A stretch of 64,000 nt of DNA from a phage. The notes below the pieces were generated by a model. The model did no database searches and was not told where the DNA came from. It worked only from the letters and a program-made list of their open reading frames with translations. This document shows, piece after piece, positions 4,245-63,300 of the stretch. Within the stretch, counting starts at the first letter, position 1. Every line of letters begins with the position of its first letter. The position numbers and the translations under genes are program-made. The stretch lies in NCBI GenBank assembly GCA_027337125.1, contig GCA_027337125.1_3057.1. One strand, 5' to 3'.

Positions 4245-4450
4245 GTATCTAGGCCTTTCTGGACCTCTCTAGGCATCATTTAGTTTCTACCCTTTATAAT
4301 ATATTATCTTATCTTTTAATTGTCCCTCCCTGCCCTAGAATTCCCTAAAACTTTTTAAAAATTTTTTCACAAAACTATTTACATCCCTGTTCTTCCATGG
4401 TACTATACAACTATCAACTACTGATACAGAAAAACAACTTGGATAATAAA

Positions 4451-9945: not shown

Positions 9946-10204
9946 AGATATTAAGGGTTATAAGCCACATACTGACGATAAAATCAGTAAAGTGAATGCT
10001 ATTAAAGATGCTGAAGTTCGTTTAGGACTTATCTTTGACGCTTTATATGATGAATTCTGGGAAGCACTAGATAATTGTGAAGACTGTGAATTCGCGAAGA
10101 ATTATGCTGAAAGCCTCGATCAGTTAACTATTGCTAAAACGAAACTCAAAGAAGCCAGTATGTGGGCTTGTCGTGCTGTGTTCCAACCAGAGGAAAAATA
10201 TTAA
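9938..10204 (+). CDS. hypothetical protein
   Basis: 88-aa acidic ORF with ATGA overlap to previous gene. Confidence 0.5.
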
Positions 10205-10482
10205 TGGCTCAATTAAGCGCAGGGTTTGGTTATGAGTATTATACTGCCCCTCGTCGTGTATCTGTTGCTCCTAAGAAAATTCAAAGTCTTGATGACTTCC
10301 AGGAAGTAGTTCGTAAAGCTTTCCATGACTATGCGAGTTATCTTAAAGAAGATTCACAGGACTGTCTCGAAGAAGATGAAATTGCTTACTATGAGCAGCG
10401 TCTTGAACAGCTTAAAAACCTACATGAGGTTCGTGCAGAAGTTTCAAAGTCTATGAATAAATTGATTAGATTTAAAGAATAA
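10204..10482 (+). CDS. hypothetical protein
   Basis: ATG (MAQLSAG) overlapping previous stop preferred over ORF-track GTG. Confidence 0.5.
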
Positions 10483-10484
10483 CT

Positions 10485-10533
10485 GTTTACTTTTCCTCTT
10501 GACTGTGGTATAATTTTTCTATCAGTTAAGAGG
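10485..10533 (+). promoter_or_regulatory. early promoter embedded in inverted repeat whose 3' arm covers the regB Shine-Dalgarno
   Basis: GTTTAC-17 bp-TATAAT; arms CCTCTTGACTG / CAGTTAAGAGG (10 pairs plus one G-T). Confidence 0.6.
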
Positions 10534-10541
10534 AGAATAAC

Positions 10542-11003
10542 ATGACTATCAACACAGAAGTTTTTATCCGTCGAAATAAGCTCCGTCGTCACTTTGAGTC
10601 GGAGTTTCGTCAAATTAACAATGAGATTCGTGAGGCATCAAAAGCAGCAGGGGTCTCATCGTTTCATCTAAAATATTCTCAACATCTTCTTGATCGTGCA
10701 ATTCAACGGGAGATTGATGAGACATATGTTTTTGAATTATTCCATAAAATAAAAGACCATGTTTTAGAAGTTAATGAATTCCTAAGTATGCCTCCGCGTC
10801 CTGACATTAATGAGGATTTTATTGATGGGGTTGAATATCGTCCTGGGCGTTTAGAAATCACCGATGGAAATCTTTGGCTTGGATTTACAGTTTGTAAACC
10901 TAACGAGAAGTTCAAAGACCCGTCACTTCAGTGCAGGATGGCAATTATCAACAGTCGTCGTTTACCGGGAAAGGCTTCTAAAGCAGTAATTAAAACTCAA
11001 TGA
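10542..11003 (+). CDS. regB: RegB sequence-specific endoribonuclease
   Basis: 153 aa, matches recalled T4 RegB (MTINTEVFIRRNKLRRHFESEFRQ...). Confidence 0.85.
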   Translation: MTINTEVFIRRNKLRRHFESEFRQINNEIREASKAAGVSSFHLKYSQHLLDRAIQREIDETYVFELFHKIKDHVLEVNEFLSMPPRPDINEDFIDGVEYRPGRLEITDGNLWLGFTVCKPNEKFKDPSLQCRMAIINSRRLPGKASKAVIKTQ

Positions 11004-11010
11004 GGTAAGC

Positions 11011-11556
11011 ATGAGAAAAGCACTACTCGCTGGTCTATTGGCCATTTCAATGATGGCACATAGCTCCGAGCATACTTTCAGTAATGTCCAACTCGATAAC
11101 ATGCGTTACGCGTATCAATTCGGGGAACAATTTTCTAAGGATGGAAAATATAAAACACACAAAAATATCCACAAGAGCGGATTAGGTCATATAATGGCTG
11201 CTATTTTATGGCAAGAAAGCTCTGCCGGAGTTAATTTAAAATCTAAACCAAAGCATCACGCTTATGGAATGTTCCAAAATTATTTGCCTACTATGCGAGC
11301 AAGAGTTAAGGAACTTGGTTATAATATGACCGATGCTGAAATAAAAAGAATGTTGAATAAACGATCCAATTCAGCTTCATGGGCGTACATTGAACTTTCT
11401 TATTGGTTAAATATACATAAGGGTGATATAAGAAAAGCAATATCCTCTTATAATTCGGGATGGAATGTTAAAGCAGGTTCTAAATATGCTTCTGAAGTCC
11501 TAGAAAAGGCTAATTACCTTAAAAATAATAAACTTTTGGAAATAGTAAATGACTAA
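11011..11556 (+). CDS. secreted lytic transglycosylase-like protein (vs.1 position)
   Basis: Signal peptide; SLT-like E-S-S...G-M-F-Q motif. Confidence 0.6.
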   Translation: MRKALLAGLLAISMMAHSSEHTFSNVQLDNMRYAYQFGEQFSKDGKYKTHKNIHKSGLGHIMAAILWQESSAGVNLKSKPKHHAYGMFQNYLPTMRARVKELGYNMTDAEIKRMLNKRSNSASWAYIELSYWLNIHKGDIRKAISSYNSGWNVKAGSKYASEVLEKANYLKNNKLLEIVND

Positions 11557-14276: not shown

Positions 14277-14300
14277 TAGTCTCCTTCGGGAGACTTTTTT
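14277..14300 (+). terminator. rho-independent terminator
   Basis: AGTCTCC-TTCG-GGAGACT hairpin plus TTTTTT, immediately followed by an early promoter. Confidence 0.65.
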
Positions 14301-14310
14301 CATTTTACCA

Positions 14311-14340
14311 GTTTACTTTTCGTTTGAGCCGTGGTACTAT
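14311..14340 (+). promoter_or_regulatory. early promoter (GTTTAC / TACTAT) with conserved leader
   Basis: GTTTAC, 17-bp spacer, TGGTACTATACAACTATCAA block shared with four other promoters. Confidence 0.6.
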
Positions 14341-14368
14341 ACAACTATCAAATAAAGAGGAGAACATC

Positions 14369-15122: not shown

Positions 15123-15152
15123 GTTTACAAGTTGGCAAGGTTATGGTATAGT
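15123..15152 (+). promoter_or_regulatory. early promoter
   Basis: GTTTAC-17 bp-TATAGT. Confidence 0.5.
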
Positions 15153-15180
15153 AATCTTGTCAACTGCCAAGGAGAAGAGA

Positions 15181-17692: not shown

Positions 17693-17718
17693 AGGGAGCC
17701 TTCGGGCTCCCTTTTTTT
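17693..17718 (+). terminator. rho-independent terminator
   Basis: AGGGAGCC-TTCG-GGCTCCCT hairpin plus TTTTTTT. Confidence 0.65.
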
Positions 17719-17742: not shown

Positions 17743-17772
17743 GTTTACAAACATAAAGCTTTATGGTACTAT
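17743..17772 (+). promoter_or_regulatory. early promoter with conserved leader
   Basis: GTTTAC-17 bp-TACTAT followed by ACAACTATCAACTGATACGGATTTGGAGAA leader. Confidence 0.6.
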
Positions 17773-17806
17773 ACAACTATCAACTGATACGGATTTGGAG
17801 AACAAA

Positions 17807-19878: not shown

Positions 19879-19931
19879 GTTTACAAGACTGTTCCTCTGT
19901 GGTACTATACAACTATCAACTACGGAGGAAC
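19879..19931 (+). promoter_or_regulatory. early promoter inside inverted repeat whose 3' arm covers the SD
   Basis: GTTTAC-17-TACTAT; arms GTTCCTC / GAGGAAC (the latter is the SD of the 19937 gene). Confidence 0.6.
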
Positions 19932-19936
19932 ACAAA

Positions 19937-20464
19937 ATGAACGCTAAAGATATTTTCAACCTGGTAAATTACAACGACGGTAAATTTAAATCTGAAGCAC
20001 AAAGCAAGTTCTTTAATGACATCTCAATCGGAGGTGAAATCACGGTTGATGGAGGACAAATTTACAAATCCCGTTGGAATTGGATCGTTATTATTGATGA
20101 GATTGGTATTATAGAAATTTATAAGAATACGAATAAAAATCGTACATTACACTGGTCTCGTGATACTAACGAACAGTACAAAAAGGATAAAGCATCTAAA
20201 TTATCTCGTGTAACTCAAGAAGATATTGAGTTCATCAAGAAAGATATTTTGATGTATGATAACTTAATTGCTGAAGAGCAAGCTGTTATTGATAAATTTG
20301 ATGAGATTAAAGCTTCTCGTGAAATTCCTGATTTTATGAAAGAATCAGTAAATGAACGATACACTCTCATTTCAGAGCGTATTGAAACTTACAAAAAGCA
20401 AAGAGCTGAACGCCAAAATACTCTTCGGAAGTTTGAAGAACGGTTAAAGACGGTACTCGCATAA
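19937..20464 (+). CDS. hypothetical protein
   Basis: 175-aa ORF, C-terminal coiled-coil character. Confidence 0.55.
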   Translation: MNAKDIFNLVNYNDGKFKSEAQSKFFNDISIGGEITVDGGQIYKSRWNWIVIIDEIGIIEIYKNTNKNRTLHWSRDTNEQYKKDKASKLSRVTQEDIEFIKKDILMYDNLIAEEQAVIDKFDEIKASREIPDFMKESVNERYTLISERIETYKKQRAERQNTLRKFEERLKTVLA

Positions 20465-22862: not shown

Positions 22863-22891
22863 TTTACTTTACCACAAGGATGTGGTATAAT
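22862..22891 (+). promoter_or_regulatory. early promoter
   Basis: GTTTAC-17 bp-TATAAT. Confidence 0.55.
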
Positions 22892-32678: not shown

Positions 32679-32756
32679 CTGATATCCTCTATGCTTTAAG
32701 ATAGATCTTCAAATATTATGATATAATAGATCTATGAATTGAGCTAAGAGGTGAAA

Positions 32757-33314
32757 ATGTCAGAAACTAAGCCTAAATATAATTACGTAAACAATAAAGA
32801 GCTTTTACAAGCTATTATTGATTGGAAAACAGAATTAGCAAATAATAAAGACCCAAATAAAGTAGTTCGTCAGAATGATACTATCGGATTAGCCATTATG
32901 CTTATTGCAGAAGGCTTATCTAAACGTTTCAACTTTTCAGGATACACCCAGTCTTGGAAACAAGAAATGATTGCAGATGGTATAGAAGCTTCTATTAAGG
33001 GGCTTCATAATTTTGATGAAACGAAATATAAAAACCCACATGCATATATAACTCAAGCTTGTTTTAATGCATTCGTCCAACGTATTAAAAAAGAGCGTAA
33101 GGAAGTTGCAAAGAAATATAGTTACTTCGTTCACAATGTCTATGACAGTCGTGACGACGATATGGTTGCGTTAGTAGATGAAACTTTTATTCAAGATATC
33201 TACGATAAAATGACGCATTACGAAGAATCAACCTATAGAACACCGGGGGCTGAAAAGAAAAGTGTTGTAGACGATTCTCCTAGTTTGGATTTTTTATATG
33301 AGGCTAACGATTAA
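32757..33314 (+). CDS. 55: late sigma factor gp55
   Basis: 185 aa from [11 protein letters not shown], matches recalled T4 gp55; SD AAGAGGTG. Confidence 0.9.
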
Positions 33315-44892: not shown

Positions 44893-44914
44893 AGGGACCT
44901 CCAGGTCCCTTTTT
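44893..44914 (+). terminator. rho-independent terminator
   Basis: AGGGACC-tcca-GGTCCCT hairpin plus TTTTT. Confidence 0.6.
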
Positions 44915-44997: not shown

Positions 44998-45027
44998 GTT
45001 TACATCCCTGTTCTTCTATGGTACTAT
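44998..45027 (+). promoter_or_regulatory. early promoter, part of duplicated promoter-leader cassette
   Basis: About 67 bp nearly identical to the cassette at 4361-4427 (GTTTACATCCCTGTTCTTC.ATGGTACTATACAACTATCAACTACTGATAC). Confidence 0.6.
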
Positions 45028-45064
45028 ACAACTATCAACTACTGATACGGATTTGGAGAATGAA

Positions 45065-45301
45065 ATGAAAATTGTTATGGGATGCTTAGCAGTTTGTTTA
45101 GTTGCATTAGCAGCAGTTCCATTTGTTAGTGTTGAAAATGATACCCAACCTGTGATTGAATCTAGCACTGTTATTCACACTAATGGTAAAATATCAGTTA
45201 AAATTGATGATAATCTTCATGTGAATACAAATGGATCTTTAGGTGTGCAAATAGGTAATACCTGCATAAGCACTATTGGAGTAATTACTACTTGCATTTG
45301 A
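45065..45301 (+). CDS. small secreted or membrane protein
   Basis: ATG after GGAGAATGAA; signal-like hydrophobic N-terminus. Confidence 0.5.
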   Translation: MKIVMGCLAVCLVALAAVPFVSVENDTQPVIESSTVIHTNGKISVKIDDNLHVNTNGSLGVQIGNTCISTIGVITTCI

Positions 45302-50723: not shown

Positions 50724-50760
50724 TTTACAAGCTGACAAGACTATGGTATAGTAGTCTTGT
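50723..50760 (+). promoter_or_regulatory. early promoter with -10 bracketed by 8-bp inverted repeat
   Basis: GTTTAC-17-TATAGT; arms ACAAGACT / AGTCTTGT. Confidence 0.6.
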
Positions 50761-50781
50761 TGGTTAAATGAGGAGATCGTT

Positions 50782-51210: not shown

Positions 51211-51252
51211 GTTTACAAGCTGATAGAGTTGTGTTATAGTAATTCTATCAGC
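51211..51252 (+). promoter_or_regulatory. early promoter with -10 bracketed by 9-bp inverted repeat
   Basis: GTTTAC-17-TATAGT; arms GCTGATAGA / TCTATCAGC. Confidence 0.6.
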
Positions 51253-51271
51253 TAATCGTGGAGAAAAGAAA

Positions 51272-53330: not shown

Positions 53331-53376
53331 GTTTACTTTCTCAGCTTGTTATGGTATTATAAAATAAACTGCTGAG
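53331..53376 (+). promoter_or_regulatory. early promoter inside inverted repeat whose 3' arm covers the SD
   Basis: GTTTAC-17-TATTAT; arms CTCAGC / GCTGAG, the latter within GCTGAGGA SD. Confidence 0.55.
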
Positions 53377-53385
53377 GATAATATA

Positions 53386-54725
<1,340 letters not shown>

Positions 54726-55632: not shown

Positions 55633-55638
55633 ATTCAG

Positions 55639-55662
55639 GGACTCCTTCGGGAGTCCTTTTTT
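55639..55662 (+). terminator. rho-independent terminator
   Basis: GGACTCC-TTCG-GGAGTCC hairpin plus TTTTTT. Confidence 0.65.
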
Positions 55663-57586: not shown

Positions 57587-57769
57587 ATGGATTTATTTGA
57601 GATGTTAGAAGATAATCATTCTACGAATATCCAGAATGATTCTAGTGATTATAAGAAAGAATACCGTATAGTATTACAGAATTATGGAATTGAAGCCCCA
57701 GATGCTCTTCTAGAAGAACTGGCTTCATACCATCTTGACCCTCCGCCTTGGGCTCCCTGGGCAAAATAA
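57587..57769 (+). CDS. hypothetical acidic protein
   Basis: 60-aa ORF. Confidence 0.5.
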   Translation: MDLFEMLEDNHSTNIQNDSSDYKKEYRIVLQNYGIEAPDALLEELASYHLDPPPWAPWAK

Positions 57770-57780
57770 TTCAAAAAGTT

Positions 57781-57836
57781 GTTTACTTTCCTTTCTAACG
57801 ATGATATGATAGCTTCTGAAGTATACGGAGGCTATC
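57781..57836 (+). promoter_or_regulatory. early promoter with inverted repeat flanking SD
   Basis: GTTTAC-17-TATGAT; arms GATAGC / GCTATC enclosing TACGGAGG SD. Confidence 0.5.
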
Positions 57837-58460
57837 ATGATTATTAATCTTGCAGATGTTGAACAGTTATCTATAAAAGCTGAAAGCGTTGATTTTCAAT
57901 ATGATATGTATAAAAAGGTCTGTGAAAAATTTACTGACTTTGAACAGTCAATTCTTTGGCAATGTATGGAAGCCAAAAAGAATGAAGCTCTTCATCGGCA
58001 GTTGAATAAAATCATTAAAAAGCATTTAACTAAATCACCTTATCAGCTATATCGTGGTATATCAAAATCGACAAAAGAACTCATTAAAGATTTACAAGTC
58101 GGAGAAGTGTTTTCAACGAACAGAGTAGATTCATTTACTACTAGTTTGCACACAGCGTGTTCTTTTTCTTATGCTGAATATTTTACTGAAACAATACTTC
58201 GCTTAAAAACTGATAAAGCTTTTAATTACTCTGACCATATCAGCGATATTATACTTTCTTCTCCTAATACTGAGTTTAAGTATACATATGAAGATACTGA
58301 TGGATTAGATTCAGAACGTACTGATAACTTAATGATGATTGTGCGTGAACAAGAATGGATGATTCCAATTGGAAAGTATAAAATAACTTCTATTTCAAAA
58401 GAAAAATTACATGATTCATTTGGAACATTTAAAGTGTATGATATTGAGGTAGTTGAATGA
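57837..58460 (+). CDS. modB: ADP-ribosyltransferase ModB-like
   Basis: 207 aa; ART signature R (YRGIS), S-T-x, and EQEWMIP (Q/E-x-E). Confidence 0.65.
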   Translation: MIINLADVEQLSIKAESVDFQYDMYKKVCEKFTDFEQSILWQCMEAKKNEALHRQLNKIIKKHLTKSPYQLYRGISKSTKELIKDLQVGEVFSTNRVDSFTTSLHTACSFSYAEYFTETILRLKTDKAFNYSDHISDIILSSPNTEFKYTYEDTDGLDSERTDNLMMIVREQEWMIPIGKYKITSISKEKLHDSFGTFKVYDIEVVE

Positions 58461-62742: not shown

Positions 62743-62772
62743 GTTTACTTCCTCGGTTAGTTGTGGTATTAT
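62743..62772 (+). promoter_or_regulatory. early promoter
   Basis: GTTTAC-17 bp-TATTAT. Confidence 0.55.
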
Positions 62773-62799
62773 AACACCATAGTTACTGAGGATAATAAA

Positions 62800-63300
62800 A
62801 TGAAAATTTATCGTGTTGAATCATCGTTTAGTATTCTTGATTATGAAGATGCTATAACAATACGTCGAAATCTTTGTGTTCAAATAACACCGTACAGGAG
62901 TATAATAGATTCATGGAGCGAAGAGTGGCTATTACACGTAGGTTATGACAGACCTAATTTTATGCATCATAGCGATAATAATAAAAGAATTCCTTTACCA
63001 CACGAAGATAAACTATTAGTTAAAAACGCTAATATAGTAATTAATACTAAGTTCAAGAAAGATTATGTTGGAGTAGAATATCATATTCCAGGATGGTTTA
63101 TAGCTCTTTATCATTTTGCTTTCGCTAGTGAATATGATATGATGAGATGGTTCACACGAGAAGAGCGGGAAGAATTATCTTCTAAAGGATTTTATCTCGC
63201 TGTATACGAAGTTCCTGAAGATGAAGTTATCATTGGCGGGCACCAAGTAATGTTCCGTAAATCCCATGCTGAACTCGTAGATTTTATTGAAATGAGATAA
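62800..63300 (+). CDS. hypothetical protein (motB position)
   Basis: ATG after GAGGATAAT; ORF-track upstream start lies in promoter. Confidence 0.5.
   Translation: MKIYRVESSFSILDYEDAITIRRNLCVQITPYRSIIDSWSEEWLLHVGYDRPNFMHHSDNNKRIPLPHEDKLLVKNANIVINTKFKKDYVGVEYHIPGWFIALYHFAFASEYDMMRWFTREEREELSSKGFYLAVYEVPEDEVIIGGHQVMFRKSHAELVDFIEMR

Follow-up and report, generated by a model that had tools for sequence, protein, structure and literature searches.

Masking of the Shine-Dalgarno (SD) sequence by a hairpin with a promoter inside it is established for the phage T4 genes e, soc, 49 and I-TevI (PMC3014915). In these genes, as also in segB and in mobE of phage Aeh1, the SD, the AUG or both are paired with sequence upstream of the start of the internal promoter, and RNA initiated further upstream is poorly translated, whereas promoter-proximal RNA is open. 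Here, an arrangement of this kind is described at five early promoters in a 64,000-nucleotide stretch of phage DNA (contig GCA_027337125.1_3057.1 of assembly GCA_027337125.1, hereafter the window), namely those of regB, nrdC.8, modB, motB.2 and an open reading frame (ORF) adjacent to dam. The mechanism is already known in kind, and these early-promoter sites are new members.

The five sites differ from the described T4 genes in the class of promoter and in the expected effect. The promoters of e, soc, 49 and I-TevI are late (TATAAATA, gp55) or middle promoters and the hairpin delays expression, whereas the five sites carry an early promoter of the sigma-70 type, and the expected effect is reversed, with expression limited to the earliest minutes. 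No late promoter TATAAATA was found at the five sites.

In the PeSL (promoter-early stem-loop) cassettes of T4-like phages (Arbiol 2010; Comeau 2014), a short intergenic segment likewise holds an early sigma-70-like promoter together with a stem-loop, the SD and the ATG. Their stem-loops often lie between the −35 and −10 hexamers or over the −10, and G·T pairs have been noted in the stems. The five sites have the AT-rich upstream region, the early promoter, the SD and the ATG of such a cassette. However, PeSL stem-loops lie upstream of the start, are free of the SD, and are read as sites of termination or attenuation that also serve as substrates for recombination, whereas at the five sites the 3' arm lies at or after +1 and contains the SD. 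On this anatomy, equating the sites with PeSL stem-loops was ruled out.

A similar logic is found outside the phage systems. Davis, Simons and Kleckner (1985), as cited in PMC13181058, described fold-back inhibition in Tn10/IS10, in which external transcripts are not translated. In Tn10/IS10 and in the sigG hairpin of B. subtilis, RNA from outside carries the complement of the ribosome-binding site and remains untranslated, and the gene's own RNA starts inside the repeat (PMC5942855). These systems belong to other organisms and genes, have no sequence kinship with the present sites and insulate against fortuitous or mistimed transcription, whereas the five sites belong to the temporal programme of a phage, to which an SD-specific RNase is coupled. 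The accessible T4 reviews credit regB with no more than a typical early promoter and autocleavage by RegB, and an earlier description in older literature is possible.

Anatomy and folding of the five sites

At each of the five sites, the 3' arm of a hairpin contains the SD, the embedded early promoter is predicted to start transcription downstream of the 5' arm, and folding buries the SD only in RNA initiated upstream. The promoter is of the T4 early type at every site (GTTTAC, an 18-nt spacer and TAnnnT; GTTTAC-N18-TAnnnT). Judged by sequence identity, the source of the window is a T4-like Tequatrovirus; positions 10000-11500 share 97.6% identity with phage T4 and 99.4% with Escherichia phage FL33. 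In T4 the early genes are on the minus strand, to which the + strand of the window corresponds. Genes at the sites were named by mapping T4 coding sequences onto the window, and start sites were predicted from the −10 hexamer. The features are as follows.

10485-10490, + strand: −35 hexamer GTTTAC of the regB promoter; the same promoter is annotated in phage ASO78A
10491-10508, + strand: 5' arm of the regB hairpin, with core CCTCTTGACTG at 10495-10505, in the promoter spacer, before the start site
10509-10514, + strand: −10 hexamer TATAAT of regB, in the hairpin loop; predicted start near A10521
10519-10535, + strand: 3' arm of the regB hairpin, with core CAGTTAAGAGG at 10523-10533; SD GAGG/GGAG at 10530-10535
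10542-11003, + strand: regB coding sequence, RegB endoribonuclease, 153 amino acids (aa), ATG at 10542
19879-19884, + strand: −35 hexamer GTTTAC of the nrdC.8 promoter
19890-19903, + strand: 5' arm of the nrdC.8 hairpin, TGTTCCTCTGTGGT; its last base overlaps the −10 TACTAT at 19903-19908
19919-19932, + strand: 3' arm of the nrdC.8 hairpin, ACTACGGAGGAACA, with SD GGAGG; predicted start near A19915
19937-20464, + strand: nrdC.8 coding sequence, 175 aa, ATG at 19937
53331-53336, + strand: −35 hexamer GTTTAC of the early promoter of the ORF upstream of dam
53338-53345, + strand: 5' arm of the dam-adjacent hairpin, TTCTCAGC, in the spacer; −10 TATTAT at 53355-53360 in the loop
53371-53378, + strand: 3' arm of the dam-adjacent hairpin, GCTGAGGA, with SD GAGGA; predicted start near A53367
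53386-53946, + strand: dam-adjacent ORF, 186 aa, ATG at 53386, not in T4; its end abuts the dam start
57781-57786, + strand: −35 hexamer GTTTAC of the modB promoter
57805-57818, + strand: 5' arm of the modB hairpin, TATGATAGCTTCTG, made of the −10 hexamer (57805-57810) and the discriminator; predicted start at 57817-57819
57826-57839, + strand: 3' arm of the modB hairpin, CGGAGGCTATCATG, spanning SD, spacer and AUG
57837-58460, + strand: modB coding sequence, ADP-ribosyltransferase, 207 aa
62743-62748, + strand: −35 hexamer GTTTAC of the motB.2 promoter
62750-62767, + strand: 5' arm of the motB.2 hairpin, TCCTCGGT.TAGTTGTGG; −10 TATTAT at 62767-62772
62776-62792, + strand: 3' arm of the motB.2 hairpin, CCATAGTTACTGAGGA, with SD GAGGA; predicted start near 62779
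62800-63300, + strand: motB.2 coding sequence, 166 aa, ATG at 62800

A first-pass annotation of the window had listed inverted repeats at regB, nrdC.8, the dam-adjacent ORF and modB. All four were found where it had placed them, and motB.2 (62743-62802) is a fifth site beyond its list. Minimum-energy folding gives longer helices than it had reported, of 8-18 bp including G·U pairs: 14 bp with two G·U pairs at nrdC.8, 14 bp with three at modB and 8 bp at the dam-adjacent ORF, and the regB stem also includes G·U pairs. The proposal that the −10 lies in the loop holds for regB and for the dam-adjacent ORF; at modB the −10 forms part of the 5' arm, and at nrdC.8 the first base of the −10 also belongs to the arm. 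The proposal that the 3' arm is the SD or abuts it was borne out, as every 3' arm contains the SD. RNA from the embedded promoter had been predicted to lack the 5' arm, and this agrees with the predicted +1, which lies past the 5' arm or in its last bases (10521, 19915, 53367, 57817 and 62779). The T4 reference carries the same stems.

The folding of read-through and promoter-proximal 5' ends, which had been suggested as a check, separates the two RNA forms clearly. The long RNAs, in which about 55 nt upstream of the predicted start were included, folded with −16.9 to −28.2 kcal/mol at the five sites, with z scores of −2.9, −4.4, −2.6 and −4.5 at the four originally named sites and of −5.4 at motB.2. 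The short RNAs started at the promoter were unstructured, with 0 to −1.4 kcal/mol at the four originally named sites, 0 to −2.3 kcal/mol at all five, and z above zero.

The cost of opening the start region was calculated for 106 genes of the window as the ensemble energy for positions −16 to +3, in a long RNA (−150 to +40) and in the short RNA. At the five sites the cost was 11.8-17.0 kcal/mol in the long RNA and 2.8-9.2 kcal/mol in the short RNA. The individual values were 17.0 vs 4.8 kcal/mol for regB, 16.3 vs 3.3 for nrdC.8, 16.1 vs 2.8 for modB, 15.2 vs 9.2 for motB.2 and 11.8 vs 3.3 for the 186-aa ORF. The known cases e, 49 and soc fold into their published hairpins, which serves as a positive control, and the opening energies of the e, 49 and segB copies in the window are in the same range as those of the five sites (long and short RNA, respectively: 18.3 and 3.8 kcal/mol for 49, 17.5 and 7.7 for segB, 14.5 and 4.4 for e). 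Gene 55 requires 15.2 kcal/mol in the long RNA and 4.4 kcal/mol in the short one. All remaining genes stay at or below 11.3 kcal/mol in the long RNA, and a promoter motif lies inside the occluding structure in all nine of the most strongly occluded ribosome-binding sites. The median opening energy is 5.3 kcal/mol, the same for early-promoter genes and for the others.

In the swap control, 21 promoters were each divided at the start into an upstream half (U, −35 to −1) and a downstream half (D, +1 to the start codon), and every U was combined with the D of all the other promoters. For folding across the start, the own pairs reached −184.6 kcal in total, whereas derangements reached −119.3 ± 10.6 and 0 of 7406 attained the own value. 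Because the own pairs beat the derangements, the formation of hairpins around the −10 is real and general among the early promoters of the window. An own ΔΔG for opening the SD of at least 8 kcal/mol was found for 5 of the 21 promoters, where 1.25 were expected (P = 0.0015), and a chance origin of SD occlusion is thus unlikely. At about nine promoters, the own values were near zero and below almost all swaps, so that the SDs of these promoters seem to be kept open. An origin of the occlusion as a by-product of the early-promoter consensus was ruled out for four sites by the half swaps.

The sense strand folds far more strongly than the antisense strand, with −22.4 vs −12.5 kcal/mol for regB and −20.2 vs −13.1, −12.1 vs −8.4, −18.0 vs −10.1 and −18.4 vs −14.3 kcal/mol for the other stems, and a total of 13 G·U pairs occur across the five. 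This argues for an element that acts as a sense-RNA structure and not as a DNA cruciform, and the cruciform was ruled out on the same two grounds.

The stems at the window sites and in relatives are not followed by a U-tract; the sequence after them is A-rich (AGAAUAAC, ACAAAAUG and similar). Canonical intrinsic terminators were ruled out because no U-tract follows any stem, and terminator scans at the sites returned nothing but a formal match at modB, the tail of which, TGATTATTAA, lacks a contiguous U-run. In GenBank record MZ726795.1 (1997-2043; locus L002), the regB promoter hairpin is labelled a rho-independent terminator (WebGeSTer); this label is probably a mis-annotation because no U-tract follows the hairpin, and such stems should not be labelled terminators by annotators. 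A search of Rfam 15 at the gathering threshold gave no family at the sites and matched only eight tRNAs in the window. On the minus strand, a TTG-initiated ORF of 74 aa at 10389-10613 overlaps the regB promoter and start; it has no supporting signal and is probably spurious.

Conservation and covariation of the stems

For regB, 39 loci from IMG/VR with 53-99% protein identity were compared, in which 14 arm-sequence lineages were distinguished. In nearly all loci, the 5' arm begins right after the −35, the −10 lies in the loop and the 3' arm is the SD. The arm pairs themselves vary among loci, as CCTCTTGACTG/CAGTTAAGAGG, CTCCTCTAGTTG/CAACTAGAGGAG, TCTCCTGTAAG/CTTACAGGAGA, ATCCTCATTTG/CAAATGAGGAT, ATCTCCTTTTAGT/ACTAAAAGGAGAT and others. 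A plain MAFFT alignment of the leaders was out of structural register and was replaced by an SD-anchored register and by alignment-free swaps. In the SD-anchored register, 10 of 12 pairs are altered on both sides, and compensatory changes are also found outside the SD core. The covariation score is 0.384, compared with 0.145 ± 0.019 for shuffles and 0.06-0.17 for slid controls. Each sequence's own fold supplied the register, so that the count of double changes leans towards structure, whereas the swap test is free of this bias. In that test, the own U and D pairing of the 14 lineages reached −208.0 kcal in total against −109.7 ± 7.8 for cross-lineage swaps, and 0 of 10978 swap sets matched the own pairing. 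Opening in the long RNA costs at least 10 kcal/mol in 31 of the 39 loci and at least 8 kcal/mol in 38, whereas the short RNA requires 1.1-6.6 kcal/mol. Lineages L071 and L080 have a variant in the style of modB, with pairing between the −10 and SD-AUG regions.

At motB.2, two lineages have unlike arms, TCCTCGGT/ACTGAGGA and TTCTCCTCATG/CATGAGGAGAA, and opening requires at least 16 kcal/mol in each of the 11 loci. The compensatory evolution at regB and motB.2 shows, as judged from the leaders compared, that the pairing itself is under selection there. At nrdC.8, the stem is kept in 6 of 8 loci; the SD is occluded in the T4 group and in a group of 67-69% identity, and in this more distant group the 5' arm is located elsewhere in the spacer. 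The arrangement is supported most strongly at regB and motB.2, well at nrdC.8 and modB, and weakly, by folding, at the dam-adjacent ORF. The regB stem, kept by compensatory change across most T4-like lineages, offers a clean model for isoform-dependent translation.

In Pfam, the 186-aa dam-adjacent ORF matches the DpnII restriction endonuclease below the threshold (17.6 bits where 23 are required; E = 0.0025), and full copies of it occur in roughly 146 of the 504 related phage records. A nuclease-like gene of GATC type beside Dam would merit a structural check.

Function of the hairpins and rival explanations

The explanation we favour, and hold to be probable on balance, is that the early promoter sits inside an SD-masking hairpin so that the gene is translated only from its own early transcript. 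The 5' arm occupies the promoter spacer or the −10 region ahead of the predicted start, and the 3' arm is the SD, together with the AUG at modB. RNA from the embedded promoter would have a leader of 19-22 nt without the 5' arm, with an open and translatable SD. Read-through RNA would carry both arms, and the local hairpin would shut once the 3' arm has been made, blocking 30S binding. RegB, NrdC.8, ModB, MotB.2 and probably the dam-adjacent product would then be made only from their own early-promoter transcripts. Synthesis would be confined to the first minutes, before the shut-off of early promoters and the cutting of exposed GGAG by RegB, and later read-through transcripts would bear these cistrons silently. 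Synthesis only at early times is expected because early promoters are off after 2-3 minutes (PMC3014915). The first-pass annotation had suggested that the logic of the T4 late genes e, soc and 49 is applied here to early promoters; folding, the internal positive controls and the comparative data back this suggestion.

Same-strand promoters are found upstream of all five sites, and no terminator-like motif was found upstream of regB, nrdC.8, modB or motB.2. We infer that read-through RNAs exist and that the hairpin reduces their translation, and silencing of these transcripts is most likely the main function. RegB cuts the SDs of regB, modB and motB.2, and moderately that of nrdC.8, in vivo, as seen by primer extension (PMC1702504), and these SDs are therefore exposed in early transcripts. 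RegB and ModB are classed as early proteins by proteomics (PMC9697503). No paper was found in the literature on T4 Ribo-seq or TSS-seq. Translational coupling by ribosomes that terminate upstream was considered and rejected; the stops precede the 5' arms by about 13-36 nt (for example, TAA at 10480-10482 with the regB core at 10495, and the modA.2 stop at 57767-57769 with the modB arm at 57805), from where melting of the stem would be unlikely.

Several observations weigh against this explanation. The architecture is a minority trait, present at 5 of the 21 early promoters of the window, and is not general. Pyrimidine-rich spacers (…CCTC…) give 5-7 kcal/mol of generic anti-SD pairing in the swaps. 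Occlusion is weaker, at 5.8-9.4 kcal/mol, in regB lineages L055, L056-60 and L078/79, and an nrdC.8 lineage of 84% identity (L024, L027) has lost it, as the hairpin there avoids the SD. The sole variation in the modB stem is a C-to-U change on one side, which leaves a G·U pair, and the phage collection contained no intermediate modB relatives, with matches either at least 95% or less than 41% identical. The site at 53340 is the weakest, with a short stem equalled by 1 of 20 swaps and with no informative variation and no covariation among relatives of the dam-adjacent ORF, and a terminator-like hairpin, the only such motif upstream of the five sites, lies 60 nt before it. In T4, the relation between occlusion and the absence of an upstream terminator is a trend that does not reach significance (a terminator precedes 0 of the 8 most strongly occluded genes and 9 of the 29 others).

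The hairpins might also have been selected mainly to hide the intercistronic GGAG from RegB in long middle-mode RNAs, so that downstream cistrons are spared from decay and the translation block is a side effect. The 3' arms cover the GGA(G/U) motif, the four occluded SDs that T4 also bears are all in vivo targets of RegB (4/4; PMC1702504), and secondary structure easily inhibits RegB, with middle and late mRNAs that contain GGAG being resistant (PMC3014915, PMC1702504). However, the same architecture serves translational control at e, soc and 49 (PMC3014915), the modB stem also spans the AUG, which shielding does not need, and T4 denV has a stem of 10 bp and 10.7 kcal/mol although its SD is intrinsically resistant to RegB in vivo (PMC1702504). 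For these three reasons translational control is ranked as primary. Protection from RegB is rather unlikely to be the main reason for the hairpins; it is compatible with translational silencing, and shielding of the SD in long transcripts is a plausible co-function. RNA of modB made in vitro resisted RegB, which its authors attributed to a stable structure (PMC1702504). The oddity that modB is resistant in vitro and cut in vivo may follow if the RNA made in vitro included the 5' arm, which is speculation on our part.

A PeSL-type role, in which the hairpin terminates or attenuates upstream transcription and the cassette promotes recombinational shuffling, as proposed for RB49/phi1 and PST/T4, would fit the joining of a sigma-70-like early promoter, stem-loop, SD and ATG in intergenic cassettes (PMC2839356, PMC4122927), the generality of −10-enclosing hairpins among the early promoters of the window and the terminator label on the regB hairpin in one GenBank record. 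It is nevertheless improbable, given that the stems of the window and of relatives lack a U-tract, that the described stem-loops are compact, upstream of the start and apart from the SD (PMC2839356) whereas the 3' arm is the SD here, and that those of PST/T4 sit just upstream of the promoter (PMC4122927). The arms also diverge between lineages while the pairing stays, which is the opposite of what a cassette for homologous recombination needs. Chance, or a by-product of pyrimidine-rich spacers that complement purine-rich SDs or of random short repeats in AT-rich intergenic DNA, is very improbable as a general account. Several spacers do hold CCTC or CTCC, swapped constructs keep 3-7 kcal/mol of occlusion, and 1 of 20 swaps does as well as the 6-8 bp stem at 53338-53378, but the own pairs beat all swaps at regB, nrdC.8, modB and motB.2, compensatory changes occur outside the SD core, and stems of 14-18 bp have z down to −5.4. 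For regB and motB.2, covariation among the compared lineages largely refutes chance. It would be more surprising still if the inverted repeat acted in DNA, as a cruciform or a symmetric protein site that tunes promoter activity or shut-off. The repeats flank or include the −10, and the shut-off of early promoters is incompletely understood (PMC3014915); yet on the other strand the 13 G·U pairs would become A·C mismatches, the antisense folds lose 4-10 kcal/mol, and the arms differ by site and lineage without a common protein site, with the 3' arm tracking the SD.

Throughout the T4 genome, 7 of 37 early-promoter genes require at least 13.9 kcal/mol (alc, alt.-3, regB, motB.2, modB, the start in the ndd.4 region and nrdC.8), and five further ones require 9.6-10.7 kcal/mol. 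A broader and more tentative possibility, to which we give less credence than to silencing at the five sites, is that a genome-wide switch with two parts restricts between about a fifth and a third of the early-promoter genes of T4-like phages to immediate-early translation. In such a switch, RegB would cut the exposed SD of short transcripts, and the hairpin would make the SD untranslatable and RegB-proof in middle-mode read-through RNA. If this is true, long transcripts could cross toxic or regulatory genes silently and intact towards downstream cistrons. Translational silencing by the hairpin would provide a testable cis mechanism for immediate-early proteins that appear in a brief burst (the RegB RNase, ModB and T4 Alc) despite continued transcription in longer RNAs, and it ties this burst to the inactivation of early mRNA by RegB.

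Other hairpins and promoters in the window and in T4

Five occluded starts of T4 (AF158101; loci L086-L088, L014 and L015) lie outside the window or are missing from it: alc at 136278, alt.-3 at 123032, the ndd.4 region at 166749, denV at 65355 and 30.8 at 130253. Their opening costs 10.5-19.7 kcal/mol in read-through RNA, and alc and alt.-3 have almost the same promoter-hairpin cassette.

In the window, the region upstream of gene 55 (ATG at 32757) may be a further promoter-in-hairpin site and is listed as a candidate from its predicted fold. A nested hairpin at 32679-32763 pairs GATATCCTCT with the SD AGAGG, and its inner hairpin, ATAGATCT…AGATCTAT, holds TATGATATAAT in the loop.

Hairpins that resemble PeSL were found at 1151-1182 (ipI), 1515-1545 (trna.4), 15130-15165 (mobD.2), 22870-22887 (nrdC.4), 50730-50765 (dmd) and 51218-51253 (an 84-aa ORF). 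They are 7-15 bp long and fit PeSL in lying between the −35 and −10 or over the −10. Their 3' arms end at about +1 to +9, leaving the SD untouched, and the SD in read-through RNA is at least as open as in the swaps. Strong stem-loops with U-runs occur at 14278-14295, 17693-17712, 44893-44910 and 55637-55658, three of them with a UUCG tetraloop; each directly precedes an early promoter, namely that of mobD.5, nrdC.10, the 45065 ORF or mrh.2. These four have the terminator-then-promoter form of PeSL (PST/T4), and the SD is occluded in none of the four genes (0/4).

The block TGGTACTATACAACTATCAACTAC, which extends from the −10 to about +10, is near-identical at 4401-4430, 14335-14360, 17767-17790, 19903-19923 and 45022-45045. 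The shared block suggests paralogous promoter cassettes, which could be recombination substrates.

By blastn, the T4 genes segF, 61.2, b-gt, mobB, mobC, I-TevII, 49.3, nrdC.2, nrdC.3, tk.1, denV, ipII, e.2 and e.7 have no counterpart in the window, and the window has ORFs at 45065, 51272 and 53386 that T4 lacks. The mosaic differences between T4 and the window cluster near early promoters.

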